This document shows, one piece after another, positions 6,501 to 41,939 of a DNA stretch of 64,000 bases. The notes beneath the pieces were generated by a model. That model worked only from the letters and a program-made list of their open reading frames with translations. It was not told the DNA's origin and ran no database searches. Positions within the stretch are counted from its first letter, which is position 1. Each line of letters begins with the position of its first letter. The position numbers and the translations under genes were made by a program. Source of the DNA: Blasia pusilla (Eukaryota); the NCBI GenBank assembly GCA_050084515.1, contig CM114271.1, positions 29,078,001 through 29,142,000 of the forward strand, written 5' to 3'.

Positions 6501-9500
6501 CATGGTTTACATATGTGGGACCTTTACAAGGTGTCATGGCACGGTTTGTGGTAGAGTGGGAATCTGGCCAGAAGGGTTGTACAATACATGTTTCTCCTGA
6601 TCAGCTTTGGCCTCACACTAAGGTTTGTAAAGGCCCCCTATGTTTGCTTGTACATCTATGGGATCTTGTATATTTGTGAGAACTGATAAGACAGTGGTTT
6701 TTTGTAAGTGGTAACTGTTTTGGTGGCTTTTATATGTTCTTGTATCTACGCAATTCCATTTCTTAAGAGACATAAGCTAATGGGGTTCTTTTAAGTATGG
6801 GAATATTGTTAGACTTTCTTGTTAGCAATGATTGGGAAAATTTATTTTGTGATTTTCCGCCTAAAAAAAAAGTCTGTTTTGGATGCCAATTGTGATTGGA
6901 GGCTGAGATTGGATATGCATGAATTTGGCAGAATTTAAGGAAAATGAGAGAGTATGCTGGTTGGGATAAAACTTAATGATAAGGCATAAGGATATGAGAC
7001 CATCATACCGAAAAATCAGTCCTCTGATTACATCTTGCAGCTGCATATGCCTTGCCCTTCTCTTACTAAAGGCGATCCTGTTCAGGCCTTTTCTGAACTA
7101 CTCCTCTGAATAATGAGAATGTGATGCTGTGCAGTACCTTGAAGATTATATCAATGGAGGAGAGATGGAGCTTCTATTAGATTCAATACGAGTCACAGTT
7201 GGACCTTTGCAGGCACTTGCAGCCGCAATCAGGCCAGCACGGATTTTGGTGGGTGCAAATAATGTTACAGCTAATGTTCCTTCGCAAGGTTCAATGCCTG
7301 TGGGTCTTGCCTCAAAGCCTGCTGCTGTTGGCCTTCTACTTAACCAGGTGTCATCTCCAATGAGTAGTTCAAATTCAGCTTCAGCCACTGTTCAGGGTAG
7401 ACTATCCAATGGGTCGACATCAGTTCTTGGTGTGGGGAGTCCGGGGTCTACAGTTCCTACTGGTCAAGCTGGTGGCTTTTCCCTTAATTCTGGAAGAGCA
7501 GTGTCAACGGGAATGGTACCAGCCTCACTTCTTCCGACAGATGTCTCAGTTCTACTTAGGACACCCTACTGGATTCGCATTGTTTATCGTAGACAATTTG
7601 CCATGGACATGCGGTGCTTTGCCGGGGATCAGGTGTGGTTGCAGCCAGCTCCACCTCCTCGAAGTGGGAGTCCTGGATCAGGAGGTTCACTGCCATGTCC
7701 TCAATTTCGCCCTCTTATTATGGAGCATGTGTCATTGGGTCTTTCAAGTGCTGAATCTGTAGCTGGAGGAGTTCCTCCTGGGTTGGTATCTGGAAGTGGA
7801 TCCAGTCAGGGTGGATTTGGTGCAGGCATAGGAAATTGGGGTACTGGAATTAGTTCTACTGCAGCCACAATTCGTGGGAATACTGGGGCCTTGGCTGGTA
7901 CTCGCATGGGCAACAACACCATGGTTATGGCCAATCGAGCTGGTAATATTGCTGGAGGACCTCAAAGCAGTGCAGTCATGGCAGTGAATTCTGGACAGAG
8001 CTCGAGTACTGGAGCCAACATTGGTAGTAGAGGTGAATATACGGCAATATTGGGTCTAGGAGACGATGGTGGGTTTGGAGGTGCTTGGGTTCCCCTTGCA
8101 GCTCTTAAGAAGGTTCTACGTGGTACGCTTCGCTATCTGGGAGTTTTATGGTTGTTTGCACAGTTCCCAAGTATACTAAGGGAAGTTCTGGGCTCGATAT
8201 TGAAAGAAAATGAGGGAGCTCTGCTTAGCCATGATCCCGAACAGCCTGCTCTTCGATTTTATATAGGGTATGTACTCATTCTTTCGTGTTTTGGTCTTTT
8301 CATGTTTGTTGAAGTCGCCTATCTGCTTTAATTTCTGTTTTGCAGCATTTAGTCCCAACTGGTTGTACTTGGTATAATGCGCTTTCCTTAATCTTCAATC
8401 CTTGGAGTTCAATGTGGAGTCTCTTTCTATCGGATTTGGGCAGATGTCGAATCACTTGGTTACCAGATGCAGAACTTTGTTAATAATTTCATGCTTGAGG
8501 TGGCCTCTCAATTTGTCTCTGTATGTGGTTTCAGTCTGCTTCAGGGAATGTTAATTAAATTGTGGGTGTGAATACTTACCAGTAGGAGACAGTGTATTTG
8601 GACATGATTTCAATGCCTTTACCCACAAGGAACTTGTTTAGGCTAAATAGCCTTCTGTGAGACTATATGGCTAGTGAGGAGACCGAGCTTTGACTTCTTA
8701 GCCACCATACAACTTGTCATGCTATCTTTAGCAAGTCCTAGTGCTGAAGAAAGAAAATATTGTTGAAGCCTTTTACTGCTCTCTGAGGGTGTCATCTAAT
8801 CTAGTTGCAATTGTTGTAAGGCTTTGACTGATTTTGACAACGTTCAAGCCAAAGGGCATAATTCAACTGGTTGGGGTCCCTAGTTCGCAAGTTTTAGGGG
8901 CCTGTCAAAAGTTCTCGGGTCATGACTGCTGAGGTGCAATTCACCTTGCATCCTGTGAGTTTGGATGGTCATCTTGAGGTCATTTCTCGTTGTTTTCCAA
9001 AGAGGGTGGTTGTTAAGATCTAGATGTTGCAAGTTTCAATGATTGAAGTCTGCACTACGGACGTGATGGTTCTTTGGTCCTTTTTAGTTCTGTTTTTGAC
9101 TGGGCTCCTTAGTTCCATGCTTTATGAGGATCTAATGTTGAAAATATCATGGACTGATACTTCCTTCACTCAAAATTTTCAGGGCTGATTGGATCATGCA
9201 TTTGTCTTTTGTAACCTAGTTGCTCAGGGTCCATTGGATTTCTTTGGTCTTTTCTTAACTTTATTCCGAAGTCTAAAGTATGTGTTCCTGATTCGTATAT
9301 TTATATGATGTGAGTTTCGAGTACATGTGTTTTGTCTGGGTCAGAAACTCCTTTAGAGTAGCCATGAAAATCCACATCGGCGTTTTGGTTTGCTGAAAGT
9401 GTGGAGGATGCTCAGAAACTGCAGGATATTGTGGAAACAGAGCTTAAGTAGTGACCCTTAAGTAGTGAGAGAAACCCAGAAGGTTAGGAGTGGTTCAATA

Positions 9501-19359: not shown

Positions 19360-19789
19360 GTACCAATCGAGGTGCGGTAAGAGGAGAGGAAGAGAGGAAG
19401 AGAGGAGAGAGGAGAGAGGAAACTACCTTCAACCGAAATAGATACTTTTTTTGAAGAGAGTTTCCTATGATTTGAAGAGAGTTTCCGTTGGGTTGAAGAG
19501 AGGAAACTTTTTGTGTGAATTTTTTTGCACTTTTTTGCTCAGTTATTAGCAGTCCCACAGTTTTTTTTTCTCTTCCATATTTTGGCAACCCATCTGAGTC
19601 CGACTGGTTGCAAATTGCACAAAATTTACAAAACTGAAAAATCTGTGGAATCATAAGTGTGGAACCAATCACTTTTTCCATCCAAGGTCTGGAAACAATC
19701 TACCATTTGCCCTGGGCTGAATAGAGTTCAAGCTCAAAGTGAAGGTTCTTGAAAAATGAAAGTACAATCTAAAACCTCATTTTGCATCC

Positions 19790-22700
19790 TCAAAGTGGTT
19801 TGTTTAAAATACTTTGCACTTCTTTGAGGGACAGAATTGGTTGGTGGATTCCTACTCCTACCTCGGACTCTCTTAAAACTACCAGCAACACATAGTACAT
19901 GTGCTTACAAGGGAAATACCTTGTGCCACTTGTCTCTCTTTGGACAAAGTCATCACATGAACATGTGGGAAAGCAACAGATGTGCACCACAAACACCCCT
20001 GTGACACTGGAATTTACAGTGTTGTTCAAAAACCCAATACATCCTTCCTATTCTATTGCCACGCATGACATCTTTCGTGGCGATGATCTCCATTTTTTCC
20101 TCCCGAGCTGATGCAATTCGCTTTGCTCTCTCCACCGTTGGCCTACTCATTCTGTTTCTCTTCACCCCATTTCTAGGCTCAAACAGAAATAGTGGATTGA
20201 GATCATCCACCTTCTCCGGGTACATGTTGACATCAATCTTGGGTTGAATACGAAATACGAAGGTCTCTGTAATGCGAACATGCTCCGAACTTCCCCCGTC
20301 TACGAGTCTGAAACCGGAACTTGTAAGATTGTCCACTTCGTCTTGAGTGCAGTTCGTACCTGCGGCGATGGGCCAAATTGTGGGGGTATTCCCTAGAGCT
20401 CCAATGGCAGCCGGATAAGACTTCCGGAAAGCGCAAGATTCATTTGGGCAGAAGAAGTACTTCAATTGATCCCCGGTCCTTGTGAAACGATCAAAGGTCT
20501 TGAGTCCCCAAAACCCAGGCAGTGGTCGTCTAGTCCTTGTACAGTTCTTATTTAGGAAAGTGCCGCATGCTCTCCTAATGCCATCAGATCCTGCCCTGCA
20601 GGTGGATCCACGTCCTGGGTTGCTCCGAGATATATGCCACAGTTTTAGGTTGCAATCCACCTCCATTACCGGAATCCCATATTGTTGAACCACCCTAGTG
20701 ACCGGATGTTGCGAACTTCCAGCAACGGAGGGCTTTCGAAATAAGACATTCACTCATTTTGGAGAAGGGTCTCCATCACGGATTTGGGAGCGGTCCGGGG
20801 TCCCCGAATACATGGGCGGTGTAATTTCCTCATCCAAATCAATCATCGGATTTGTTCCTCGATGCTGCCTCTTCACCTGCGTGAAGTCAAGATACTTATC
20901 TGGTCTCCACGAGTCTCGCTCGGACTGCTCTACCACCATCTGTATGGGACGTCTTGAAACCCGCCCACGAATATCCCCACCAATGTGTACGTCTTGCTCG
21001 AGGGGAGTTCCAGCTACGCACCGGTTGAAGGCTTCTACATACAGTTTTTCATCACCAGATCTCACAGCCGCCCTGACATAGAGCTCGTAGATTGACGACC
21101 CCCTTCCTTTTGTTATGCCTTTTGTGAGGAAGATATGGGATGCTACCGACTATAGCATTGCTCTTTCCTGGTCTTATTGGCATGGCTCCACAAGTGAAAT
21201 TTGTTGGCATGCTTATGACGACCTCCAGGAGGAATGAACACTTTCTGCTCCACTTGTGTTGGGGCAGAGGGCATTTTCATGAATGTTCAATCCCTGCAAC
21301 GACAACAATGTTAGAAGGGAACGAAAATAGCTCAGGAGTCAAAGAAATAAGCTACATGTCGAAACCAGACGGGTTGCAAGGCCGAGGCATCCCATGAACG
21401 ACTCTGCGATCCGTCGGGTCCCGACGTGTTGCAACCCTAAATCCACCTACTACAACCCGTCGGATTCAGACGGGTTGCAAGAACCTTTGGCCACTCTGGA
21501 AGATCCAAGTGCAAGTCATCCGAAACCCATCCAGGTCGAACTATTTGCAGGCCTTGTATACATGCAACTTGCATACTTGTATACGGGTTGCACCAAAATT
21601 CTGGATGCAACCCGTCGGTTTCTGACGGGTTGCACACTCGGGCAACCCGTCGCATCCGACAGCTTCCTTGGTTTCTTCGGTTTGAAATCCCTATAGTTCC
21701 CACGCTTCTCAACTTGAGCTGCAACTTTACAAACAATTCTCAGCGTGAGCTTGACAAGACAAAATAGTGAACTCACTTGCCGCATGAAGTTTTCCCATTG
21801 TCTCATACGTCATGATCCCACTTAACTCAACCAAGAGCACAACTCTTTGTACTTCCCCTCAATCGCATGCTTCCTCCACCACCCATGAAGTTCTTCTTGG
21901 CATTCCATGGCCTGTTTCAAGGTTTTGCTGTCCTTGCAGCGTTGGAGTAGAGTGACATGCTCTGTCCTCTTATTCTCCTTGATGCAAGATTTGGTGTACC
22001 GGTCACAGACTGTTGCCAATGGAAAGCATCCGACCTTTCCCTCTCCGGTTGAACCTCTCCACCCCAGAACACTTCCCGGATAGCAATCCACCCAAGTTGT
22101 GCATTGTCCGCCATGAACCCATAAATTTCCGGAGGTGGCCTTTTGTTTTCCTTCACCACCTCCAATAAGAGTAACCAACACATCTTCAAACTGCCAACGT
22201 CTTCTGCTTTTACTTTACAGACAAATATAGTTTTGATTCCCTTCTCCACATGGTCATAAACGTGAGCACCCATTGTCAACCATCCGTTCAACACCCTAGA
22301 GCAAATATCAAAGCTTACCCAAGTTGCCGTAAGATCTTCCCCTTCTCTCATTCGATCTATAAGATCGAGGCCACTTGACGGACCTGTGGTTGACATTTTG
22401 AAGACATAGGCCCTGGATCCCTCGCCTCCTTGGCCCATGAACTACCATCTCTGAGTGAATGGAAATCTGGAGTTGGCCTTGATTCTGGCGATGGCATCCA
22501 TTTCGGCCGTCTTTCCATCCAGAACCCGTATTTGACGCAACAAATTCCGGAAGCATTCAGAATCAACGAGAAATGCGAGATTTTCCCAGAGTTGTTTCTC
22601 CTCAGCCGCCGTGATCTCGCCCTGTCCAGGGATTCCAAGAATTTTTTCACAAATTTGTGATGCTGTTGTGAGCTTGATCACTCCGGGCTTTGAACCCAGA

Positions 22701-23889
22701 GAGTTTGTGTAGACCTCGGCAACTTTTTTCGCCACATCCTCCTTGATGTGTCTCTGAATTGCATCGGTCACAGGATGAGTGTGGGAGCCAACATGAACTG
22801 CCAGCCTTGTGTATTCTGACGTGGAGCCCAAGTCGTGGAAAATGAAAAATATGTATGCAGGACATGCTCCAACGCAGAAGGGCGATGCCTGACAATGAGG
22901 ACATCGATGGCCTCCCGGCGGTATGGTGGCACAGACCTCGTATGGAGTTTCTGCATTCTTGGGGGGGAATTGCGACGTATTGACTCGCCCGTTGTGCTCT
23001 ACATACGGGCATGCTGGAATTCTACACTCCAAGGTTCCAACACATTGGCGGTGGGAGACAATCCAAGGACCATCTGGAATTGAAGCACTAGTCCGTTGAA
23101 GCACCATCGATGACAATCAGACTTTCTGTCCATACCCTTCAGGCATCCTCCATCTTTCTTTTGAGCAGGAGCAGCAAGTGGAGGCAACTCAAAAATGAAA
23201 TTACCATCGTATGTGGGCGGCAGCTCGTTGACAAGAATGTGCTTGAACATTTTCAAGGCCAGAGACGAAAGCAAACTATTTCCTGACTCACAAGAGGAAC
23301 GAGTAGGCGGACAGAGGGCACGGTTGGTGTCCGACAGATCCACTATTTTTGATAACATCCGGAATCTCTTCAGGAAGAACAACATTGTTACAAGCGTGTG
23401 AAGTTGGAGTCGCAACCGGATCTACTGAGCTAGGAGTTGCAAACGTAGAGCTCGGTGCACTAGGAAATTCTCGACTGTCTACTTGGGAAACAGACGAATT
23501 CAGGGGCAAGCCGTAAAATCTGTATTGACCATTTTCTAGAGGTAGGAGATTCCATACTTTACGGTCTGCAATCATACAGTACCGTCCACCTTAACATCCT
23601 TGGATACAAAGATGGTTCCAATTTGGAGAAGAAATCGAAAAGAGAGAAAATTTTCATCCACTGCTATGAAAGACTCAAGAGCTTGCGGTCGAACGATTTC
23701 TGATTGAGGAAGGGCCACTAGATGAGTGCCACAAGTGAGCTTCACATAATTATCCATTCCCAGAAGATTCCAACAGGAGGAGAATGAGAATGTTTTATTT
23801 ATAGTGAATAGGAACTCAGATTCTCCTGACAGAATTTGACTGACAAGATGAAGTTTGGTAGGTGAAATTTTCTGACACAATGGATTCAA
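19790..23889 (-). pseudogene. Mutator-family transposase (GCM/WRKY-like Zn domain, DDE core, C-terminal SWIM), disrupted
   Basis: Zn domain CVGTLECRIPACP...CPHC...CPA...HVGSHTHP (within 22442-23116); DDE-like WVSFD, GFMADNA, AFHWQQS, PNTSGAESVHSSW; SWIM CSC...CKH (19790-20029); GT-AG intron 21294-21776; in-frame TAG at 22442 and several frameshifts. Confidence 0.85.
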
Positions 23890-23972
23890 TTCTGTTGCAA
23901 CTTGTCAAATTCAGGTGGGTTACAGGATTTGGGAAGCAGAGATGTGGGTTGCGAAGCACACTTCATTTTGTT

Positions 23973-25962
23973 GGAACCCGTCGGAGTCCGTTGGGTTGGT
24001 ACCCCTTTCCTGCCGACCGAAGATCTTTTGAGGCGATTTTGGTAGCATCAAACACAAGATATCGCTTGTTTTTGCGGGATTATCCAACTCAGGGTACATC
24101 TTGTGACCCGTCGGATTGCAATGGGTTTCCTCGGAACAATACGTTGTCGCATTGTTTCTCGAGGGATAACCTATCGATAACCGACGGGTTGCCTTGGTTA
24201 CTCAACTATTAACCCAAGCTAAGCGAACCTTGCAGCCCGTCGGCTTCAGACGGGTTGCACGCTTTTGCCTAACCTTGTAACGCAAACATGAACGAAGCTG
24301 GCAACCCGTCGCTCTCCGACGAGTTGCGCGGGTACCGCGCTTTCTTGCCCAAAGACGGCGGAGGCGCGCAACCCGTCGGCATCAGACGGGTTGCCCTATT
24401 ATCTCACGGTGTTACACTTACATGAAGGAAGCGTGCAAACCGTCTGTTTCCGAAGAGTTCCGCGGGTGCCGCACCTTCTTGCCCAAAGACGGCGAGCCGT
24501 GCAACCCTTCGCCCTCAGACGGGTTGCGCAAGGGCCTCGCCTTGTTTCGCTTACATGAAGGAAGCGTGCAACCTGTCGACCTCCGACGAGTTGCGCGGGA
24601 AGCCCGCGTTGTTATCCCTTAACGAGGGAAGCGTGCAACCCAACGGTCTCCGACGGGTTGCGCGGGTACCTCCCTGTCGCGACCCTCATAACCAAACAAC
24701 ACCAAATATGCGCCAAGCGAAACATCAGAACTCAAAGGAACTCACGCCGCGAGGTTTGCGCTTTGGAGAGGCGTTTGGAAGAGTCTCTTGGAAAAGTCTA
24801 AGAGACGAAACGCGGAACAGAGTTGTGCGTTTCATGCGTTAGTGGTCGCGACCAGGAAACCTTGACCAAACGCAAGCCGAGACTTGAGATGAGTTGAGTC
24901 TTGGAGGTTGGTTGCCAAAGAGGTGAGAACCAGTTTGGAACACGGCTAGCGTTTGGGAGAATCTGACTGTGTTTAGGACCATAACGTTGAGCTCCGAATT
25001 GCGTTGGGGACAAGTAAGGGCGCGTTGGAAAGCTGATCTTGAGACGCTTCCAACGCACCAAAGATCTTAGCAAACGCATAAGTACAGACTGATATATTGG
25101 CCGAAAACGATTCAGAGAGCAATCGGGTTGAGGGCCAATTGGAGGGGCCCGGGTGTCTTTCCCTAAATGTAGGGGGCCCCCGGAGATCCCCAGAAGTACT
25201 AGAAAGGGGAGTACCTTCTCTGAGATGTCTCGGGAAATGAAACCCCACTTTGGGCGCCAAACGGCGTTTCAGAGGCACGGGATGAAACGGGAGTTTGGCG
25301 CGGAAACCCGAAACCCAAACCTGATCCAAGGGAGTGGACTTTGTACGCCACACTTGGATTCCAACCCGAGATTCACTTCGTGCGAGTCTTGGTGAGGAAC
25401 TCATTGGATGTTCATTGGACAGTTGGAACCGCTAGGCGCGAAACGCCGTTTCAGGTTCCTGAACCGACCAGAAAGTCTGTCCCAAGTTTTTCGAGACTTG
25501 CCCGTGTTGGAAACCGCAAAACTAGGAAGGTTGAGCTTGAAGAGAGAGTCCGAGACGAGAACTCGGAAAGTAATCCCGCTGATTGATCCAAGACCCGACT
25601 AACCGAAGTGCGTGTTTGGATGCAGATCAGCGTTGAGAGCGTGACCTACTGAACGCACGCTTCCGCAACAAACAAGATTAACGTTCAAGGAGAGTAGGCG
25701 CACGACACTCCCGTTCTTGTCCGAACACGGCGGAGGCGCGCAACCTGTCGGTCTCCAACGAGTTGCGCGGGTACCTCGCATTCTTGTCCGAAGACGGCGG
25801 AGGCGCTCGACCTGTCGGTCTCCGACGGGTTTCTCGCGCACCTTGCGTTCTCGTCCCAGGACGACGGAGGCGCGCAACCTGTCGGCCTCCAACGGGTTGC
25901 CACGAGGACGGCTGCCTTGAACCCTCGGGAAGCGTGCAACCCGTCGAAGCCGTCGGGTTGTT
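23973..25962. repeat. Tandem array (~67 bp period) of a 27-bp palindrome in the divergent promoter region, split by a solo LTR
   Basis: GCAACC-type starts at 24232, 24301, 24368, 24435, 24501, 24568, 24635, then 25740, ~25806, ~25874, 25936. Confidence 0.9.
24675..25707. mobile_element. Solo LTR (1033 bp) inserted in the MULE
   Basis: TGTCG...CGACA termini, 5-bp TSD CTCCC (24670-24674 and 25708-25712), homologous along its length to 39535-40537. Confidence 0.92.
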
Positions 25963-26050
25963 GTTTTTCACGTCCAGACTTCTGTAACGGCCGGCACGTC
26001 GCCGTCGGAAGGACGATGCGACCCAATGGTGAGCCCAACGGCTCGAAAAG

Positions 26051-26058
26051 TATAAATA
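26051..26058 (+). promoter_or_regulatory. TATA box of the MULE cargo gene
   Basis: TATAAATA about 310 bp upstream of ATG 26361, just after the palindrome array. Confidence 0.55.
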
Positions 26059-26157
26059 GGGGAGAAATCGCTCATTTCGGTTTTTCATTTTGCGATCTCC
26101 ATTGCTCTCCCGCGTAGCAGCTGACCTGATACCAAGGGGCGCTTTACACGGCGACCC

Positions 26158-26320
26158 ATCGCGAGACGATACAAGCAAACGATCGCGAGACGATTCGAGC
26201 GAACGATCGCGAGACGGTTTGACTGAACGATCGCGAGACGATTCGAGCTACCCATCAAGGAGACTCATCTCGACATCAGCAAGGCGACTCATCTCGACAT
26301 CAGCAAGGCGACTCATCAAG
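26158..26320 (+). repeat. Two short 24-bp tandem arrays in the cargo 5' UTR
   Basis: About 4x GAACGATCGCGAGACGATTCGAGC-like and about 3x AAGGCGACTCATCTCGACATCAGC. Confidence 0.85.
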
Positions 26321-26360
26321 CGATTCATCGTGCACATAGGTGGAGGCATTTCCGGGAAAA

Positions 26361-29300
26361 ATGACGAGGAAAAAATCTCAAGCAAACAAGGCTAGGAGCT
26401 TCACTCCCAAGTCCATGAGGACTCCTGCGTCACCATCTCCAGGGCCTCGTTTGGCCAATGAGATAAGGCAGCAAGAAATCGAGGAGCGGGAAAGGGAAGC
26501 GGAGATGCACAAGCAAGAGCTTCTTGCAAAATGTGTACAGGAGGCGCTCGATAAACAGAACGCAGAGGCTGAGGCGTCGCAGGCCTTGAAGAAAAGGGTC
26601 GCCGATGAAAAGCGAGAAAAGAAGCGTCTGGACGCGTCGGTGAGGAGAGCAGAATTGGCTAAAGCTTGGAGGGAAAAAGCAATAGCCATTGAAGAAAGCC
26701 CTGCCTGTCCAACCGAAAGTGTTGAGATGCGGGAAATGTCCCCGATGAAGTCCGGGGACACAATCAATATAGCGGAAACGGCCGAAGTTCAAGTCATGGA
26801 CGATGAGGTCATGAGGACCGCCAGCGTGGAGATGGTGGACATCGCTGAAGAAGCAGGAGAGCGGTCATCCTCGTCTTTAAGCCCGGCGGAAGAAATCGAC
26901 CTCTATCGGATCGACAAGTTTCCAGTGGACTTGCCAGCTGCTATCTCAGAGTAGTTGGCTGGCCAAGACACCGACCCAATCTTCGAGCGGGTAAGAGAGG
27001 ATCTGTGTTTTTTGAATTATGTGAAGGTCCATGTTGCAATTCATTGGCAATTCAGTGTAGCTTATTGATCTTGTCCCCGTTGTGATAGGTGGTAAAGCCT
27101 ATGGCACTGATGGAGGGCCACAACGCCCCAAGAATTCCACTCTGCCGATTGCGGACAATGGAGTACGTTCGCGAAATTGAGTCTGACGAGGATATTGCGA
27201 AGCTCAAACAATCGGCGGTGACAGCATCCTACGTCGACAGCTTCCCTTCGTTCTATGTTCAGCCTTACGATGACCATGGAACCCAAGCGCTGGTTACGGA
27301 GGAGGACTTGGAATCGCTCGACATATTCTGGAGGATGAGAGATCAGGAATTCAGAAGGCAAGTAGAGGGGACGGAATTCAGCTGGATGAGAAACATGTAT
27401 TTCTTCATCTGGGATGGAAATCACAGGTTCATGGCGTGGACAAAGTTTGCAGAGGAGCGCCCAAACTCCTTGGAGGCACATTTTTGCATGAAGGCAGTGG
27501 TGCTTCATCCAAACCCTCATCACATGGCAACGGTGGAGATGGCCATGCATGCCATGAACACGTAAGTTTCTTCTTGCTGCAAATCGTCGGACTCCGACAA
27601 GTTGTTTGAGTCGCCACTATTTTTGGGATGTTTTTGGCCAAAAGCAACTCGTCGGACTCCGACGAGTTGTTCGACTGACCACAGGTTTAGGATGTTTTTG
27701 GCCCAAAGCAACTCGTCGGAGTCCGACGAGTTGCTCGACTGGCCGCATTCTTTGGATGTATTTTGAAGAAAGCAACTTGTCGGAGTCCAACGAGTTGCTT
27801 GACTCGCCGCATTTTTTGGATGTTTTTTGAAGAAGGCAACTCGTGGGAGTCCGACGGGTTGCTTGACTCGAAGCTGTTTTTGGAGGTTTTTTGATGTTTT
27901 TGGCCGAAAGCAACTCGTCGGAGTCCGACAGGTTGCATTCGGAAGTTGGGAGCTACATTTTTGGCGTCAAATTGCAGCTTTCATTGAAATTGCGCAACCT
28001 GTCGAACTCCGACGGGTTGATATGTTCACTTTTGATACGGACTATCTAACAACCCGTCGGAGTCCGACGGGTTGAAACCAGGCAATCACAAATCTGAATG
28101 CAATCCGTCGGACTCCGATGGGTTGCAAAATTTAGCTTGTTGCTACAATCCGACCTTGAGCTGTAACGACTTGTCGGAGTCCGACGGGTTGCAAGAACCC
28201 ATGTACCTTACAAAATTTCTTATATTGAGTTTGGATGTGCAGGATTGTATCGGAGGGGAATGTCACCCACCACTGGACCCAGTATTGCGATCGGGTGAAG
28301 AAAGTGCTAACAACGCACCCGGCAGAGTACAAGGGGTTCTTGGGCGACTCCCTTGTAAATGAGATGCTGGCAAAGGGTGCATAAATCAAAAAGAAGACTT
28401 GGGCAAATAAATTTATTTCCCAAGATGCAGCCATCACAATCCTTTGCTGGTCGAAGATACAGGCCACCTAGAAGAGCGCTGCATTGGAGCTGGAGCGGAG
28501 GGAGAAAGTGCCTGTGTCTGAGCGTGCAAAATTCATCCAAGCTGCAGTATCTGCAGCTACGAAGTACACGGCAAGCAAGATGCAGCGCTACATCGCCATT
28601 CTCAACCCCAAACTTGGTCCGGATTTCTACAAGGAGCTGAAGGCGATAATCAAGCGCCAGCGGAAAAGGGATGAAGATCCGCAAGGTCGGATTGGGGAGA
28701 AAGTGTCTCTCGATCGCGTGCATCAATTTGCCTTGTCTGGAATAAGCGAATTTAGGAGAATATGACTCATGAAAATTAGTCTCGAGGGCACAGAGGCCCA
28801 AAAGAGGGCGGCACACCATCCTCCGGGTGTCTCTGATCCAGTGATCTCCCACTGGCTTCGGGTATGGTCTATCTGGGACGCGTTGTGGCTTATTGGGAAG
28901 TCCATGCTCGACGGTCTCCAAGCGGAGCTGAAAAGAATAGAGCCACTTCCAGAGGAAGAAAACCTGGAGAGTGCTGTAGATTTCAAACTTTGGCTTGATG
29001 ACATCCGGGACAAGCCCATCAAAAACCCAGGTTTCAGGACGATGTTCAAGGATTGCATCCTCCCTCAGGCAGACCTTGACGAAGAAATCAAGGGGAAAAA
29101 AAAGGATTTCGCAAAGAAGAAGCGAGATCTTCAAGAGCAGGCGGCCGATGTAGTTTGACTAAGAGCTACCCAACGTATGGTATTCAGGTACCTCGTCCAT
29201 TGTAAGAATGCAGGTACGTAGCGAAAAATACCGGCAGCCTGCAAATTGTGGGCTTCTCCGCCTGATGGAGAGACATTCTCCATGTACGACACGAAGATGG

Positions 29301-31090
29301 CTCAGAGCATGTCCGATTGGGAGGTGGAGAATTGCCCGATTTGGATGGACTTCAATGACCCTGAGGACATTACCGAGAAAGATCTACGCCTGCTTTATGA
29401 TGCAGTGGTCGTAGGACGGGACGACATCCCCAATTTTGTGGAGCCTAAAGACTTTTTCGAAGGAGATGCGGAAGAGCAAGCCCTCGAGACAACGGAGTTG
29501 GCTTCTAAGGTCCACACAACCAAAGACAAATCTACAGCGGGTCTCAAAGGCAAGGCGAGGGGATCGAAGAATTCCGAGGCCGAGTCTTCCCAAAGAGAGG
29601 CTGAAGATTCAAGGCCAGAGCTGGAATCGTCCAGGCGAGCGGGGAGAGAGGGTCCGACCAGGTCCTCCGCGAGAAAAACCCCACCAGAGTCTGAGGACAT
29701 AGAGACCCCAACAAGCCGACCGCAGACTCGAGAGAAGCGGAAGCGAGAGGCGCCAGGGTTGTCCCAAGGAGAATACAGTCCATCATCCTTGGGAAGACAT
29801 AGAGAAACAACGACCCGGACAAGCATCATCCTTCACTTCACGAATCTACTGGATGAGTTGAAAAGTTTCAGTTCTCAAGCGTCGACACCCGCCATCGAGA
29901 AATTGACAACGCTGGGACGGAAGCTTCAACGAAACGGGCAGGTCGGGCTCCCTTGACGGTCCATGGGGTGGTCGAAGAGGTGGCGGTGGATCTCTTGATC
30001 GCTGATTTGCCCTCGGGGTTGCGCTTGTGGGACTAGAATCCGTCCGACGGGGTCCCAGACTGGAATGTTCCCCTTTCTTATGACCAGATTGCGCTCCAGT
30101 TTTCCTTCGTAGACGCTTATCTCAGTGACAGGGGCTGCTTCTTAGTTTTAACTGGAGGGAACGAGGACGAGCTTTTCAACCTCCAGTGCGTCAAGAGGTC
30201 GCTGAAGTGGAGGACGGCGCAATCGTGGATCATCAAGAACGAGTACCCACTCCGATCCGCGACGAGTCAAATTCGGATAAGGCTCTATTCCTGTCTCCAG
30301 ATTGTATTTCTCCGACGGATTTTTTTTGTCCGTGAGCAACCCGTTGTTTTCCGACGGGTTGCATCTTTCCCAGAAACACAGGGAAAACGCATTACCACCT
30401 GCAACCCGTCGGGTTTCGACGGGTTGCAGGTGCTTATGCTTTTTCCCTGTGTTTTCCGGAAAGCTGCAACCCGTCGCCTTCCGACGGGTTGGTCATGGAC
30501 AAAAACAACCCGTTGGACTCCGACAGGTTGCTCCAATGTTAGTATTATAAAGAAGTTCTCTAGGGTTAAGCGAAGTTCTTTGGTGACGTGTTGCACATTA
30601 TGTCACCATCCTGAGAGTAGACCAGTGGCCAAGTTGCTGACATTGTTTCCTGCGTGCTTCTTTACAGATGGACCACTCCTATGTTTACTGCTTCGTTCGG
30701 ACCAAGCACAACTTCCAGGTGTTTAAGATCCAGGATCTTGTGGATCCATGCTCCGATGGGTACAACTTAGATAGTTTATACAATTCCCCCCCGGGAATTT
30801 TCATGCAAGAGGATACCCCACTACTTGGAGGAAGGGAAAAGTCGCCAGGCCTGATGCAAACGCTCATCGAGCTCTGCTTAAGGCCGGGTGACTTGGTGTT
30901 CGACTTAGTGGGCCTTTCACGCACGAGTATCAAAGGCGCCTGGCAGAGTGGTAGGAACATTCTCTGCCTCAAGGGAAGGAGGAACTGTTTGACCTTTGCA
31001 AGGAGGCAAAGGCAGATTATGACAGGCTAGTTGGGGCGTACAACTCTCCTCTGAAGCCGAGAGCTCCGGTCCAGACCCACCATTGGTAGT
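26361..31090 (+). pseudogene. MULE cargo gene: charged N-terminus, ParB/Sulfiredoxin-like domain, helical region and beta-class N4C/N6A DNA methyltransferase-like domain; disrupted
   Basis: Phase-consistent exons 26361-26990, 27089-27561, 28243-30276, 30668-~31090. ParB-like IPLCRL...VRE...DIAKLKQS...FFIWDGNHRFMAW. MTase-like VDLLIADLPSG (29986-30018), YLSDRGCFLV, EKSPGLMQTLIELCLRPGDLVFDLVG...GAWQSGRNILCL. In-frame stops at 26952, 28382, 28469, 28763, 29156, 29219, 30034. Confidence 0.75.
27579..28193. repeat. Intronic array (~64 bp period) of the 27-bp palindrome in cargo intron 2
   Basis: Copies at 27644, 27708 (perfect GCAACTCGTCGGAGTCCGACGAGTTGC), 27772, 27836, 27910, ~27994, 28050 (perfect CAACCCGTCGGAGTCCGACGGGTTG), 28100, ~28167. 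Confidence 0.92.
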
Positions 31091-31227
31091 GACACCATCG
31101 TCACTTCCCACGATTCTGAAAATCGGGAGGGCAAGGCCGAAAGTAATTTTGCAAGAGCTCTCGGATGATGACGAGTGAGTTCAAAGAACTCAAGGACCCA
31201 GCTTGACTGCAGCGTTTGGAGTAGGGA

Positions 31228-32326
31228 TTTATTTGATGACGAGGGCAAAAGAATTCATAGAATAGATGAAATGTACAGTTCCGAGCTTCTTTCGGATGTA
31301 ATAAAGGACAAGATTTTTTCGAAGGATCGTGGTGTTTCTAAAAGTTTGCTGAATATCTTTTGTGTCTTTTCGAATGTGATCGTCTATGTACTCCGAGGAC
31401 TTCTATTTTGCAACCTGTCGGATTTCCACTGCACCTTTTTAACCACTACCAAGCAACCTGTCGGATTCCGATAGGTTGGCTGCGTGAGTAATCGGACTCT
31501 TTCCCTGTTGGTCCAACTTAAGAGGCAGTCGGGCGGGCTTCTTCACTTTGGCACCTTCCCCTAGTATCGTCAAACAAGGCGTAGGCTTCTTCTCTTCTCT
31601 CAGACGTGTTGGATTCCTACTACCTGTGGGATTGCCATCATGGTATTTCCAAGGACGGAGCACATATTGATACTGGATGGGTGTCACATTACAGAGCGTA
31701 CAAGATATACCGCCGAGGAAGGCAGTGGGACTCAAATCAGGTTACATGGGACCGTTATGGTGTACCTAGGGGGGGGCCAAGGCTCTCGAATTCGCCAACA
31801 TTTTCGATCCCCGTCTACAATCGGCCAAAGGAGCCACTTGTATCCCAAGACATTCCTTTTGTACAGGAACCTAGGAGAGTTAGGAGTAAATTTGTAGATG
31901 ACGAGGCTGAAGAAATCATAGACTAGATCAAATGTACATTTCCGAGGTTCCTTCGGAGGTAATAAAGGACGAGATTTTTTCAACCGATAATGGTGTTTGT
32001 AAAAGTTTGCTGAAATTTTTTTGTACTTGTGGATTGTGTTCGTCTAGCTACTCAAAATGTTTATTTTGCAACCCGTGTGATTCTGACGGGTAGCAACTTT
32101 TCACTTTTTGACCACTGCAACTTTTCAACCATTTCTAAGCAAGCTGTCGGATTCCGACAGGTTGGCTGCTTGAGTGGTCGGACTCTTTCCCTGGTAGACC
32201 AAATTCTGAGGCATTGTGGCGGGCTTCTTCACTTTTGGCTCGTTCCCCTAGTATCGTCAAACCAGTCTTAGGCTTCTTTTCTTCTCTAAGACGTGCTGGA
32301 TTCCTATAACTTGTCGGATTGCCATT
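31228..32326 (+). repeat. Diverged direct duplication of ~400 bp (31228-31640 and 31890-32326)
   Basis: Shared blocks AATGTACAnTTCCGAG, GTAATAAAGGACnAGATTTTTTC, AAAAGTTTGCTGAA, TCGGACTCTTTCCCTG, GGCGGGCTTCTTCACTTT, CCCCTAGTATCGTCAAAC. Confidence 0.9.
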
Positions 32327-32971
32327 TCGGATTCCCAAACAGTTGAATTTTCGTGGGTGCAGGGTGGAATGGAATCACTTCTCAAAATCTTTCCTTTGTT
32401 ATGGTGAGCTTGCTTGCAAGGGATGCAAGCCATCTGATTCCGACAGGTTGCAAGAGTTGGAACCTGTAAAATTCCGACGGGTTGGGAGGGGTGTAGCATC
32501 TCGGTTTATCAGATTTAGGATCTGAATGAAGGGACATCAGTTTCTCTTTACTCTAGACAACTAAAAATCTTTTGGTTTAATTATCGTCTCCTGTGTTGAG
32601 ATGAGATTGCTACTCTGGTCACATTATTTGCCAATGGTCCTCCAAAAAAAATAGCCCTGGGCACAGCTTACTGTAGATTGAGACAGGAAATGTGAAAAAA
32701 CTTGGGCTCACATGGAGAGTGATGGAAAAATGTTTGTAGTGATCTTATGATGTCTACTTGTTTTTCGCCCCCTAGAAAAAGGAAGTTTCTTAAGGCCCGA
32801 ATGTGGACCACTACCTACTTTCTTCTAAAGATTTCATGAATTTGATAGCAAAGAAAAATTTCAAATATGTCAAAAAGTTTTGAAGAGAGGAGGCGGATTT
32901 GGCCCTTTTTTTTGAAGAGAGACTCTCCTCTCTTCCTCTCTCCTTGCAGAATACCAGCCCCCGTACCAATC

Positions 32972-35667: not shown

Positions 35668-38600
35668 TCAATCTTCAATACTCCCCCTCAAGCTCATATC
35701 GATATCTCTAACGCCTAAATTATTTCTACACATCTCAAACTTATCTCTAAACAATACCTTTGTAAAGATGTCAGCAATTTGTTGATCTGTACCTTTATAC
35801 ACAAGATCATTTTCTCCTGCAAGCACTTTCTCTTTGATAAAATGATAGTGCATCTCAACATGCTTTGTACGAGCATGAAATACAAGGTTATTAGCAAGCT
35901 TGATGCTACTAATATTTTATGCATATATTACACTATGTCCTAAGTTACTAACACCAATCTCAACAAATAATCGATAAAGCCACACTGCCTCACATGGTGC
36001 ATTGGTTGCTCCTTTGTACTCAGCCTTTGTTGAAGATAAAGCAACTGTTGGTTGCTTCTTTGAAGCCCAACTTATAGCTACGCTTCCCAAAGTAAATGAA
36101 TAATCAGATGTGGAGTGTCGATCAGACACGCTTCCTGCCCAATCAGCATCTGTGAATCCGTGTAATTGAAAACTCGGAGAAGGTTCAAATTGAAGCCCGA
36201 ATTGAATAAAGAATTTCACATACCGCATAATCCTCCTCACAACATCAAGGTGAGGTTTTCGAGGTGCTTGCATAAATTGGCTCATTAGGCCAACACCATA
36301 ACTTAAATTTAGTCTGGTTATAGTTAGATAGATCAAACTTCCAACCATGCGCCTGTATATATTAGAATCTGCAAGCAACTCTCCTTCATCCACTCTTAGC
36401 TTTACACTCTGGTCCAACGGTGTAGAAATTGGATAACAAGCCGTCATACCATATTTTGAAAGCATATGAAGAGCACATTATCGTTGTAGTAACCACATGC
36501 TCTTTCCAACCTTGATAAACTCTATACCAAGGAAGTACTTGAGTTCTCCCAAGTCCTTCATATCAAATTCTGCTTGTAACTTAAGCTTGACTTGTTGTAC
36601 CATTTCTTCAGTACTCCCTGTAATCAGGAGATCGTCAACATACAACACATTGAGAACCGTATGATCTTGTCCTCTCAAGACATATAACGAGGAGTCAAAA
36701 TCACATGCCCTAAAACCCAACTCTTGTAGGACGTATGTAATCTTGCCATACCAAGCTCTTAGAGCTTGTTTGAGCCCGTATAGAGCTTTCTTCAACCTAC
36801 ATATACGAAATGGAAATTTGGGATGCTCGTATCCAAGTGGTTGAGTCATATATACCTCCTCGTATAGATCTCCATTCAAGAAGGTATTCTTGACGTCCAT
36901 GTGATGTAATCTCCACTTCTTACTTAATGCAACTGCAACCACTATTCTCGTAGTCGCCATCTTTGCAACAGGGCTAAATATTTCCTCATAATCGATACCA
37001 TATTGTTATGCATAGTCCTTAGCCACCAATCTCGCTTTATATCTGTTAATTGTACCATCTTGATTGCGCTTGATTTTATAACCCCATTTGCAACCAATAG
37101 CTTTCTTACCGGAAGGTAAATCAACATGCTCCAATGTTTGTTGATGTCTTAATATAGCAAGCTCTTCCTCCATAGCTTGAATCCATTCGACTTTACTTGC
37201 AGCTTCTTCAAAACAACTCGGCTCTTGTTCTTGAAGGGTAGTCATCATAGATGGATGATGTGTTGCAAGGAAACCTTTATTTATGAATCTATGAACTAGA
37301 TGTGTAACTCTACCTAGTCTACGAAGTTGTTGTTCAGAGGTAGATGCCTCTGACACCTAACTCAAGCTCTGACTAGTGTCAATAGAATGAATACGTACTC
37401 TTCTGGTCCATGGACTCACAGATCTAATTGATGAATTTAGAACCTCTCAAGACAACATCCCTACTCACATAGAATTGCCTAGAGGATGGAATTATAGCAC
37501 TTATACCCCTTAGTTCCATCAAGATAGCCAATGAAAATACATCTCTCTACTTTTGGATCTAATTTCTTTCTCTTTTCATCCGGAATATGAACATAGCAAA
37601 TACATCCAAAATACTTTCAAGAAGGAAAATCAAAATTGGTTTACTTTCCGGTGAGAACTTCGGATGGAGTTTTATCAAACTCATGCTATTGGAGTTTGGT
37701 TGATTAAAATACTTGCACATGCTACTACCTCTGCCCAATATGATTTTGGCATGTTCTTTTCATTTAGCATAGCTCGTGCAATTTCTGCAATATGTCTATT
37801 CTTTCTCTCTGCTACACCATTTTGTTGTGGAGTATAACTACATGTGATTTGTCTCTCGATGCCATTCTCTCTCAAAAACTCATCAAATTCATGAGAGAGA
37901 AATTCTCCTCCTCCATCAGATCTCAATTTAATATGTATTTACCTGATTGCTTTTCTACCATAGTCTTAAAGGTGTGAAACATAGAGAGGACTTCAGACTT
38001 ATGCTTCAAGAAGTATACCCATATCTTCCTTGAGAAATCATCAATAAATGACAAAGTACTCACTCCCACTAAGACTAGGTTGTGATGCAGTCCAAACATT
38101 TGTGTGGATGATTTCCAATATATTGGATGCTCGTGTACCTTGATGAGGAAAAGAAAATCTAGATTTTTTTCCAAATTGACATGCAGGACATACCTCTAAC
38201 GTAGTAGGATTTGTGAAACTTGGGGAGTCATATTACAAATTTAGATGATGAAAGACTGTAATCTTTGAAAGTTCATGTGTCCACATCTCTTATGCCATCA
38301 CATTTAGATGTGTGACTTGTTGGTCGTTTGACCATACATCCAAACATTGTTGTTTCTTTCTGTGGTAAAACAACATCGAGTTTGAACATTCTCCCTTCTC
38401 TACTTCCCTTGGCCACCAACTTCTTATTCGGCTCCATTGTTTCAATGAAACAACCATCTACGTTAAATTTCACTTGATAACCCTGTTCTACTATCTGTCC
38501 TACAGAGATCAGGTTTCTTGGAATGGTAGGAACATAGAGAACATTTCCAAGAGCACAAAGACCATCTATGCTATTGAGACTTTATCAAGATATCGTGATA

Positions 38601-39534: not shown

Positions 39535-40537
39535 TGTCGCGACCCTCATGACCAAACAAGTGCCAAGCGGAACATCGGAATATTAGCGGGCTCACGCTAA
39601 GATGGTTTGCGCGTTGGAGTTGTCTCAAAGAGGAGACAAGATACGAGACGCGAGCGAGGAGTCGCGTTTCAGGTGTTATGGTCACGACTGAGAAACCTGA
39701 ACCAAACGCGGAATGAGACTTGAAAGAAGTCGAGTCTAGGAAGTGGGTTGCCAAAGGAAAGATCCGGATTTGGAACGCCACTAGCGTTTGAGAGTTTCCG
39801 ACTGTATTTATGACCATAACTTTTAGTGACAAGATGCGTTTGGAGCAAATAAGGGTGCGTTGGAAATATTATGGAGAGTCGGTCCAAACGCACCAAAGAT
39901 CGCTGCAAACGCATAAGCAGCGGCCGAGATACAACCCAAAAACGATTGTAAGTGGAGTCGGGTTGAGGGCCACAATGAAGGGCCCGACCCTCTTTTCCCA
40001 AAGGGGAGGGGTTATTGGAGAACCCCAGAAGTACTAGTAAGGGGGAAGGTCTCCGAGAGTGCTTGGAACCCAAACCCCACTTTGGGCGCCGCGGGGCGGC
40101 TGAAAGGCATGGAACGGAACGCGAGTTTGGGGGTTGGGTTGGAAAACCTGCACCAAGTCCATTGAGGCGATTTTAGACATCCCTCTTGGATTCCACCCCG
40201 CGATTCAATTACTTGGGTCTCGGTTCGGAACTCACCCAAGGAGCGTTGAATAGTTGGGATCGCTAGGCGCGCAAGTGCCGTTTCAGATCCTTGGACTAAC
40301 TAGGAAGTCTGTTCCAAGTCTTGAAGGACTTGCCATGTTTTGGAAGCTAGGAACTAAGGAAGGTTGAGCTTGATGAGACGCCGAGTTGAGGACTCGGTGG
40401 GTTGGAACGCCGGTTGGCCCAAACCCGACTAACGAGAGTGCGTGTTTGGGTGCAGATCGGCGATGAGTTCGTGACCTACTGAACGCAAGCTTCCGCAATA
40501 CTAAAGATTGACGTTCAAGGAGAGTAGGGGCGCGACA
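39535..40537. mobile_element. Solo LTR (1003 bp) nested in the Copia 5' leader, same family as 24675-25707
   Basis: TGTCGCG...CGCGACA termini, 5-bp TSD CATAG (39530-39534 and 40538-40542). Confidence 0.92.
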
Positions 40538-41939
40538 CATAGACCACTCCTACACAGAAATTGACCTGAAATTTTCCAAAATTGATTAATTGTATGAAAG
40601 AACTAGTCAAAATTGGTGTGTAGAGAGCGAACTACACAACTTTTCTTTACTAATTGCACTTTCCTACACTGAAATTACTACTGTCGGAGCTCAGAATGTG
40701 AGAATCGAGCAATTTGGATGCATTGGAAAGCTCTCGACGAGCTCTACAAGACAGCTAGAACAAGGCTTTGGCATTGTTCTAGCCGCTATGGACCCAGATG
40801 GCTAAATCGACCAGGAAAGCCTTAATAAATGCCTCCAAAGTTTTATCACCATCAAAGCTCCATATGAAATGTGCATCCACTGAGCTCTGAAGAAAACTTC
40901 CTTCTCCCAAACTGAAATTGTGCCTTCTCTTGCCTCTCTTCTCTCCTCAAACACCAAGAATTTCAAGTGTTGTTCTCCTATCGCTCTAATACCATGTACA
41001 AAACTGCTCAACAAGCATAGCTGGTGGAAAACCGCTCTCACACATACGTACCACCATGGAGAAAAAAATTTGCAATTAAGAATGAGTGGAGGCTGGTCCC
41101 CTTCTCAATGTAGGGTATTTACAAGCAACCCTAACCCTAACCTTAGTCTCGAGTTAGACTAACTGTGATTAACTAACCCTAGTTAAGATAATCGCGCTTA
41201 ATTGGCTAACAAAGATTAAGCTTCCCTACTTCGTGTGAGTACCAAATGTAGCAATTCAGATGTCTCATGAGCTTGACTGTAACTCAATCTTCAATAAGCC
41301 CGTTCAGAGCCTATTACGTAGACCCAAACTAATAGAGCCCAGATCCATTGCGGGGCCCATGGCAGGCCCACAGGGCGGGCTTAGGCCTACATAGGGACCG
41401 CCATGCATGCCTACCACGGTGCCCGCAACGGTGCAGAATCTGTCAGACCCGGTCTATGCGGCGTGCTCTAGGTGGGCTTGGGTGAGGGCCGTGGGTACCT
41501 GAGCCCGCACGGGCATGTCCGTCCATATGCATAGGATAGACATAAGTCTATGGATATGGATATGTTCCCAAACATGAACTTTGTCCATGTGCAATCCTAC
41601 TAAGCCCGTAGTGGCCCGCGACTTGACTAAAATTATTATTCATCCTCACAAACTTCCTTCCCCAATATGTTATTTTCATCTTGAGACGACCATGCCTTAC
41701 CATTCTTAATGTTAGAATCCAAATTATCACATTCAAAATCTCCAGGTGGAAGAGGCTCGTTATCTTCAAAATCACCATCTTAAATCCGCTATGCCTTTTT
41801 TTTTCAATGATTGTTGTTTCAAGGATATTCTCCTTTAGTGGGTTCATTTGCCCCACTCTCCATTCCTGTTCTAAACTTCCCTTCCCATACTTCTCATCGT
41901 GACGCTTTCGTAACAACTCTTGTTGGCTTCTTGATCTAT

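Follow-up and report, generated by a model that had tools for sequence, protein, structure and literature searches.

A 27-bp palindrome arrayed in the non-coding DNA of a decayed two-gene Mutator-like transposon of Blasia pusilla, and its possible role as a binding site for an element-encoded protein

The DNA analyzed here (the window) is a stretch of 64,000 nucleotides of Blasia pusilla (GenBank assembly GCA_050084515.1, contig CM114271.1, positions 29,078,001 to 29,142,000 of the forward strand), and all positions given below are those of the window. It contains a two-gene DNA transposon with a candidate span of 19369-32962 (13,594 bp), whose genes are divergent: a Mutator-like transposase gene on the reverse strand and a second gene, here called the cargo gene, on the forward strand. 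Stops and a frameshift have disrupted the two genes, and this copy of the element is a dead relic. A 27-bp palindrome recurs throughout the element in arrays between the two genes, in three of the four inferred introns and in the 3' flank of the cargo gene. The genes, introns and palindrome arrays of the element are the following:

19585..19611, no strand assigned: leftmost palindrome copy, with 3 mismatches and a DNA fold of only -4.0 kcal/mol, which folds poorly now
19790..23900, reverse strand: decayed Mutator-like transposase gene with a tentative start and a C-terminal SWIM-like finger at 19790-20047
21294..21776, reverse strand: transposase intron, with a GTGAGT donor at 21776 and an acceptor (CTAAC...TTGCAG) inferred from sequence only
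21351, 21406, 21452 and 21607 (palindromes) and 21642 (half-site): array A1, in the transposase intron
23973..25962, no strand assigned: array A2, intergenic between the divergent genes, with 13 copies and a variant, in 67-bp units with a 133-bp higher-order period
about 26364..31177, forward strand: decayed cargo gene, with a ParB/sulfiredoxin-fold N-domain (WDGNHR motif), a helical middle, an acidic region and an N6/N4-methylase-like C-terminus
26991..27088, forward strand: cargo intron 1, 98 bp, with a GTAAGA donor and a TAG acceptor, inferred only and devoid of palindromes
27562..28242, forward strand: cargo intron 2, with GTAAGT...CAG ends, holding array A3
27579-28192: array A3, in cargo intron 2, with 10 palindromes and six regular 64-bp units
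30304..30667, forward strand: cargo intron 3, with an uncertain donor (30266-30305) and a TTTACAG acceptor at 30666-30667, holding array A4
30336-30531: array A4, in cargo intron 3, with 4 palindromes
31410..32485, no strand assigned: array region A5, in the 3' flank of the cargo gene, with 5 copies and one half-site

The consensus of the palindrome is GCAACCCGTCGGAnTCCGACGGGTTGC, in which 26 positions are specified. Matches to this consensus with up to 3 mismatches numbered 19 in the window, compared to 0.00 expected from 100 dinucleotide-preserving shuffles. When up to 7 mismatches were allowed over the 26 specified positions, 37 copies were found, all of them within 19585-32485, and the same scan of the remaining ~50 kb of the window gave zero copies. 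By cluster, one copy lies at 19585, four at 21351-21633, 13 at 23973-25962 together with a variant that has a 2-nt loop (at 25936, beyond the 37 copies), ten at 27579-28192, four at 30336-30531 and five at 31453-32485, and the arrays recur every 1-2.5 kb across the whole element. With the lone half-sites at 21642 and 31410 the total rises to about 40, in agreement with a preliminary description of this DNA that had counted about 40 copies by eye, and the cluster positions listed there are those that the rescan recovered. The same description placed the palindrome only in introns, promoter and subterminal DNA; the introns are as described, while the "promoter" is intergenic DNA with a presumed function and "subterminal" is only roughly right, with the leftmost copy 217 bp from the candidate left end and the right-hand copies 477-1550 bp from the right end. 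Placement in non-coding DNA only must, furthermore, be expected of any tandem array if selection once acted on the genes of its family.

Half-sites with up to 2 mismatches numbered 34 on the left and 37 on the right (71 in total), a single one of which (59156) lies outside 19585-32485. Only two to three lone half-sites are present in the whole element, and since half-sites almost never stand alone, the unit is read as a dimeric site. Information content was 1.0-2.1 bits at palindrome positions 1-12 and 15-27, whereas none of the 28 flanking positions scanned, and neither of the central positions 13-14, exceeded 0.4 bits; the palindrome is thus sharply bounded, in a logo that is biased by having its copies chosen by their match to the consensus. 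Searches with the exact palindrome pattern gave no matches in viral contigs, one unrelated single match without an array in JGI metagenome contigs (L001), and two single matches in prokaryotic genomes (L002 and L003), without arrays and unrelated to the element. A search for proteins translated through an array, as a way to further copies, returned 42 candidates, none at E≤1. Peptides encoded by the palindrome gave three weak matches in 160 retrieved homologues compared to 2.45 in shuffles; the ends of these homologues extend slightly beyond the conserved exon boundary, and such read-through tails are mostly too short to inform. Two smaller repeats recall the motif: a 21-bp tandem repeat (2.5 copies, 19450-19502) in the left subterminal DNA has one unit with a degenerate right half-site, and a 5+1+5 palindrome at 30040-30056, in the cargo exon coding the VPDWN motif, resembles the centre of the 27-bp palindrome, maybe by chance.

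The palindrome copies are the cores of regular tandem units of 64-67 bp, and the arrays grew by tandem duplication. Tandem Repeats Finder reported a period of 67 with a higher-order period of 133 at 24232-24666 and 25714-25900 (5.7 and 2.8 copies of the period of 67, and 2.7 copies of that of 133), as well as a period of 64 at 27579-27894 (4.9 copies); the 64-67-bp spacing is also found at 30336-30466 in array A4. These head-to-tail copies of a unit in the range of 10-100 bp correspond to the definition of a minisatellite. Array A2 is interrupted by the insertion of a solo long terminal repeat (LTR), and its units on either side of the insertion are in phase and have a common spacer type. The idea that the two spacer types of A2 are mutual reverse complements was rejected, given a direct alignment of ~57% by eye and 64% matches for the period of 67 in Tandem Repeats Finder. 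Inverted spacers are found only in array A4, where an inverted repeat (30311-30517) with 101-nt arms, 82% complementary, is centred on the copy at 30401; A2 and A3 run head-to-tail. The 3' flank of the cargo gene contains a direct duplication of ~450 bp (31211-31638 and 31876-32325, 77% identical, offset of 665 bp), each half of which carries two palindromes. Just upstream of the start of the cargo gene, at 26151-26317, are two distinct tandem repeats with 24-bp units (4.1 and 2.6 copies), unrelated to the palindrome.

Comparison between units of the same array shows that the palindrome is better kept than the spacer. Pairwise identities between units were 0.867 for the palindrome and 0.668 for the spacer in A3, 0.793 and 0.677 in A2a, and 0.852 and 0.667 in A2b, and the column-wise Mann-Whitney test gave p values of 0.0016 (A3) and 0.045 (A2a). 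The palindrome is also the best-conserved block of 27 columns within the repeat unit, and its excess conservation persists although G/C positions here mutate more than A/T positions. A core no better conserved than the adjacent spacer had been named in advance as the observation that would speak against selection on the palindrome; these comparisons found the reverse within the arrays. Spacers of different arrays are unrelated in either orientation (510 comparisons, mean z of 0.17, maximum of 4.5), which bears out the earlier statement that the palindrome is retained even as the sequence separating its copies changes from cluster to cluster: one core is present at six places, each with unrelated spacers. 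As this copy is dead, the difference between core and spacer dates from the active lineage or from a homogenising process. Departures from the consensus amount to 134, 67 of which are C>T or G>A. CpG hypermutability was considered as the cause of palindrome decay and rejected, with CpG positions ~83% conserved and other G/C positions ~85%.

The candidate ends of the element were obtained by a search anchored on the target-site duplication, after a lenient alignment for long terminal inverted repeats gave nothing usable. The candidate end features are the following:

19360..19368, no strand assigned: candidate left target-site duplication, 9 bp, GTACCAATC, with an identical copy at 32963-32971
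19369..19412, forward strand: candidate left terminal inverted repeat, imperfect and GA-rich
32921..32962, reverse strand: candidate right terminal inverted repeat, with inverted GA-rich similarity to the left end
32963..32971, no strand assigned: candidate right target-site duplication, GTACCAATC

Mutator-type target-site duplications have this length of nine base pairs. By chance, about 1.5 shared 9-mers would arise between the two intervals used in the end search, and the call of the duplication is therefore carried by the adjoining inverted repeat. Local alignment of the left inner end with the reverse complement of the right one gave a score of 40, compared to a mean of 15.9 (standard deviation of 2.6, maximum of 29) in 500 shuffles, and the match begins 18 nt from either end. 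An 8-11-bp target-site duplication together with terminal inverted repeats, as in Mutator-like elements, is thus present, in one copy and hence as a candidate.

In the transposase gene, tblastn of the homologues P0001 and P0002 covered 23238-21720 with 36-38% identity (E of 2e-88). This region contains an in-frame TAG at 22439-22441, where the homologues carry Leu, and a frameshift near 22004-22028 followed by two further stops. The GTGAGT donor of the intron coincides with the end of alignable sequence in eight of the 10 transposase homologues, and the source name of one distant transposase relative, at 33% identity, is Calypogeia fissa. The C-terminal SWIM-like finger scored 17.9 bits with Pfam SWIM (E of 0.0023), compared to a cut-off of 19.6. 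The catalytic region seems to resemble MULE motifs; the MULE DDE domain (PF10551) gave no Pfam match in the fragments of the window or in the homologues P0001 and P0153-P0160. The N-terminus shows a Cys/His pattern of WRKY-GCM1 type with an inserted CxxC...CxxxC, and a language-model search with this region placed it nearest to an Atlas cluster in which 12% of the members carry Pfam GCM (score of 0.90), followed by a FAR1 cluster (0.81). The preliminary description had proposed a GCM-like domain of the transposase as an alternative binder of the palindrome; the Cys/His pattern and the cluster provide a lead to such a domain, without the corresponding Pfam match, while the ACCCG common to the half-site and the animal GCM site, brought forward in its favour, is a mere 5-mer of little weight. 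According to PMC1702500, WRKY-GCM1 domains are DNA-binding domains of Mutator transposases. Protein-guided locus searches of viral contigs, with P0001 or with the cargo exon, confirmed no locus.

The cargo gene belongs to a family without a Pfam name, for which HMMER found at least 155 relatives among 1.84 billion representatives, colinear with the window. The N-domain of the homologue P0011, 33% identical to the exon of the window, was modeled with a predicted local distance difference test (pLDDT) value above 90 and matches the N-domain of ParB, Noc and KorB (Z of 7.4-8.4), with a root mean square deviation (rmsd) of 2.5-3.0 A across 92-99 residues. In the VIA structure search with P0011, chains of ParB, Noc or KorB fill the top 11 rows, and PadC, which is ParB-like, comes twelfth (Z of 8.4-6.7); the top rows of Foldseek belong to the same families, and sulfiredoxin ranks lower. 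The helical part overlays the DNA-binding domain of ParB loosely (150-158 residues, rmsd of 5.4-5.5 A, Z unchanged), and no helix-turn-helix was found in the cargo family, where Pfam is silent. At the C-terminus, Pfam N6_N4_Mtase matched below threshold in the window (E of 0.046) and in the homologue P0144 (E of 0.0098), in the same part of the profile, and the methylase motif IV is degenerate (D-L/M/V-P-S/F-G). The family profile found nothing below E 0.95 among PDB sequences, and the 13.6-kb element contains no further long open reading frame with a match to a ParA-type partner.

Five in-frame stops interrupt the cargo gene at 28244-29956, and two more are located at 26952-26954 and 30034-30036. 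Homologues are colinear across intron 2, with residue 300 at 27559 and residue 303 at 28250; 10 of the 20 best cargo relatives stop exactly at this exon boundary, and many members of the family are cut there. Intron 3 was placed from the end of the homologue alignment at 30249 and the canonical acceptor. The array-bearing introns have ~364-681 bp, compared to ~100 bp for intron 1, and their splice signals are normal and lie outside the arrays.

A bounded core that is found at six sites, is better kept than its spacers and has paired half-sites, in an element that encodes DNA-binding candidates, is best read as a dimeric binding site. We tentatively favor, with somewhat less than even confidence, a repeated cis-acting protein-binding site whose binder would most likely be the N-terminal WRKY-GCM1-type Cys/His domain of the transposase. 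One transposase molecule would occupy each 12-bp half-site, head to head, and the many sites might collect transposase on the element, like the subterminal repeats of foldback-type Mutator elements, while those in the shared upstream region could couple the level of transposase to the transcription of the element itself. Arrays would have survived in introns through the purging of exonic insertions, and their self-complementary copies may draw the intron together through pairing; what remains in the window would then be a decaying imprint of a binding-site system. If the palindromes are binding sites, long dimeric sites in regular arrays, upstream and intronic rather than terminal, form a layout that the literature found does not describe for Mutator elements, and they would bear on the self-regulation of large two-gene transposons.

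Several observations weigh against this reading. Among the 37 copies, 31 are internal (intergenic or in introns), one is near the left end and five are 477-1550 bp from the right end, whereas known arrays of transposase sites occupy both termini in inverted orientation. WRKY and GCM domains contact 6-8 bp, compared to the 12 bp of the half-site. Pfam showed no GCM, FAR1, WRKY or MULE domain in the transposase fragments and nine homologues (P0001 and P0153-P0160), and the AlphaFold model of P0001, from an alignment of four rows, had a mean pLDDT of 43, too poor for a test of the fold. The excess conservation of the core, in a single decayed copy, could reflect conversion or the history of the arrays and not selection. 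Finally, the ParB-fold protein of the element is an equally natural candidate binder of the palindromes.

The function-free alternative is a serious rival, even if we consider it rather unlikely: a hairpin-prone palindrome without a protein-binding role would have been copied to a few non-coding sites, each seeding a minisatellite by slippage, as junk that selection on the genes excluded from exons. Template switching, ectopic repair or the insertion of short pieces derived from the element ends might have done the copying. DNA hairpins promote replication slippage, and near-perfect copies of the palindrome form stable ones (-11 to -14 kcal/mol, z of -5.5 to -7.7), with the exception of the two terminal copies, which no longer fold as DNA hairpins. 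The tandem nature of all clusters, their array-specific spacers and similar 64-67-bp units, the foldback of A4 with its 101-nt arms, the restriction to non-coding DNA as for junk arrays, and the share of C>T and G>A changes (67 of 134), as under neutral decay, are all consistent with this origin. It leaves unexplained a core sequence that is kept, beyond its symmetry, above the level of the spacer and is identical across six sites; with the exception of the A4 foldback, no target-site duplications or inverted termini surround the arrays, and 27 bp is a short tract for homogenisation by gene conversion. If only minisatellites are present, the element is a tidy example of palindromes seeding intronic repeats, of modest interest. 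We give little credence to a related origin, in which the internal arrays are nested short non-autonomous derivatives of the same family, of foldback type or resembling miniature inverted-repeat transposable elements, with palindromic ends, the intronic ones persisting through splicing. Mutator elements insert near the 5' ends of genes, which together with the foldback structure of A4 and the greater length of the array introns, whose splice signals lie outside the arrays, would suit such insertions. Nevertheless, no 9-bp duplications were seen by eye beside any internal array, the internal arrays have only the palindrome in common with the terminal 200 bp of the element, A2 and A3 are head-to-tail and not foldbacks, and the intron positions predate the element, as they are common to homologues with 33-61% identity.

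A role at the RNA level seems equally doubtful: copies paired within pre-mRNAs, or within transcripts from either strand, would form 27-bp duplexes that zip long introns for splicing or feed Dicer to yield small RNAs that silence the family. In its favor, the RNA of cargo intron 2 folds at -325 kcal/mol compared to -207 ± 6 in shuffles, with the copies pairing mutually, the first with the last, and the splice sites brought close, which would explain the tolerance of arrays in introns; the A4 foldback would yield a hairpin of ~100 bp, and pairs of neighboring copies gave five Rfam matches resembling microRNA precursors. However, all five were below the gathering scores (24-34 bits compared to 68-118), the best one reaching 34.1 bits with a threshold of 118, and the largest array is located in intergenic DNA, which may not be transcribed. 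Double changes that preserve pairing were found at two pairs only, 6-22 (in A3 only) and 7-21 (in the two halves of one duplication), and amount to two independent compensatory events at most; one-sided changes are far commoner, for example 10 T-G at pair 7-21. A strand-symmetric mutational hotspot would likewise mimic compensation in a palindrome, and the covariation lends no real support to a hairpin function. The last alternative makes the cargo protein the binder, which we hold to be improbable. With its ParB-fold N-domain and the helical domain that follows, it would occupy the palindromes in the way that ParB, SopB, KorB and Noc are loaded at palindromic parS-type sites, and its methylase-like domain would act on the element DNA, or the complex would cover it. 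The matches of the P0011 model to ParB, Noc and KorB N-domains in VIA and Foldseek, the recurrence of the arrays at intervals of 1-2.5 kb, the methylase-like C-terminus hinted at in two members of the family, and tandem units with a palindromic core, the architecture of sopC (PMC3177203), all point to such a system. Nevertheless, Pfam gave no helix-turn-helix in the cargo family and the helical overlay is loose, the methylase motif IV is degenerate, a ParA-like partner is absent among the open reading frames of the element, known parS-type sites have 13-16 bp and not 27 (16 bp in sopC, PMC3177203), and phage ParB-fold partners of DNA-modifying enzymes lack a DNA-binding domain (PMC13229309). 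More specifically, and quite improbably in our estimation, the palindromes could be parS-like loading sites for the ParB-fold methylase-like protein of the element, a prokaryotic- or phage-type module for self-recognition in which the protein would nucleate on the arrays and then mark, coat or compact the transposon DNA. Such a module could help the element to escape silencing by the host or to regulate itself, and the cargo gene is a concrete candidate for a DNA-targeting module on a eukaryotic transposon.

Known systems show partial likeness to the arrays. TNPA, the second element-encoded protein of En/Spm (CACTA), recognizes a 12-bp motif that is present many times, partly as inverted pairs, at subterminal sites that overlap the promoter and link transposition with autoregulation. 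These traits are the points of likeness; En/Spm belongs to a different superfamily, however, and the TNPA motifs are subterminal, not intronic, and lack 64-67-bp tandem units. Among ParB-type operators, those of KorB in RK2 offer a further comparison. The sopC locus of plasmid F consists of 12 units of 43 bp, and SopB binds the 16-bp inverted repeat that each unit contains (PMC3177203); the locus is similar in its tandem units with a palindromic core and in the adjacent gene for a ParB-fold protein. ParB-type systems are prokaryotic and have palindromes of 13-16 bp, a demonstrated helix-turn-helix and a ParA partner, the last three not seen here; in contrast, the present host is eukaryotic and the ParB-fold protein is fused to a methylase-like domain. 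According to PMC5499845, the transposase of Muta1 from Aedes aegypti recognizes both a palindromic motif at the terminus and subterminal tandem repeats of 12 bp, and binding and excision rise with the number of repeats. Both elements are assigned to the Mutator superfamily and have an 8-9-bp duplication (a candidate one here), a palindromic motif and many tandem short sites in non-coding DNA. In Muta1, as that source describes it, the 12-bp repeats are 3-4 bp apart within terminal inverted repeats of 145 bp and the terminal palindrome is a single one of 10 bp, whereas here a 27-bp palindrome is itself repeated every 64-67 bp, mostly internally and with one copy near the left end, as a putative binding site. 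With 31 of 37 copies internal, the placement within both terminal inverted repeats that defines the Muta1-type class is absent, and the element is counted as a variant rather than a member. Hairpin minisatellites and foldback repeats in transposons have similar self-complementary cores, array-specific spacers and growth by slippage; the element of B. pusilla differs from them in its identical core at six separate sites and in the conservation of this core above that of the spacer. The literature search, within the available portions of the sources, gave no Mutator-like element whose second gene has a ParB fold or whose introns carry palindrome arrays.

The LTR insertion in array A2 and the surroundings of the element are outside the palindrome system. 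The insertion is the following feature:

24675..25708, no strand assigned: solo LTR nested in array A2, with TG...CA ends and a 5-bp duplication (CTCCC)

A second solo LTR of the same retrotransposon family is located at 39535-40538; it is 71% identical and has TG...CA ends and its own 5-bp duplication (CATAG). Reverse-strand sequence at 35917-37005 encodes a Copia-type reverse transcriptase (RVT_2, E of 4e-53) interrupted by an in-frame stop, and long open frames of a gene for the Mediator subunit MED14 (Pfam E of 3e-35) are found on the forward strand at 1771-6679. CpG is strongly depleted in the MED14 region, with an observed/expected ratio of 0.38; the transposon has a ratio of 0.85 and the solo LTRs one of ~1.0.

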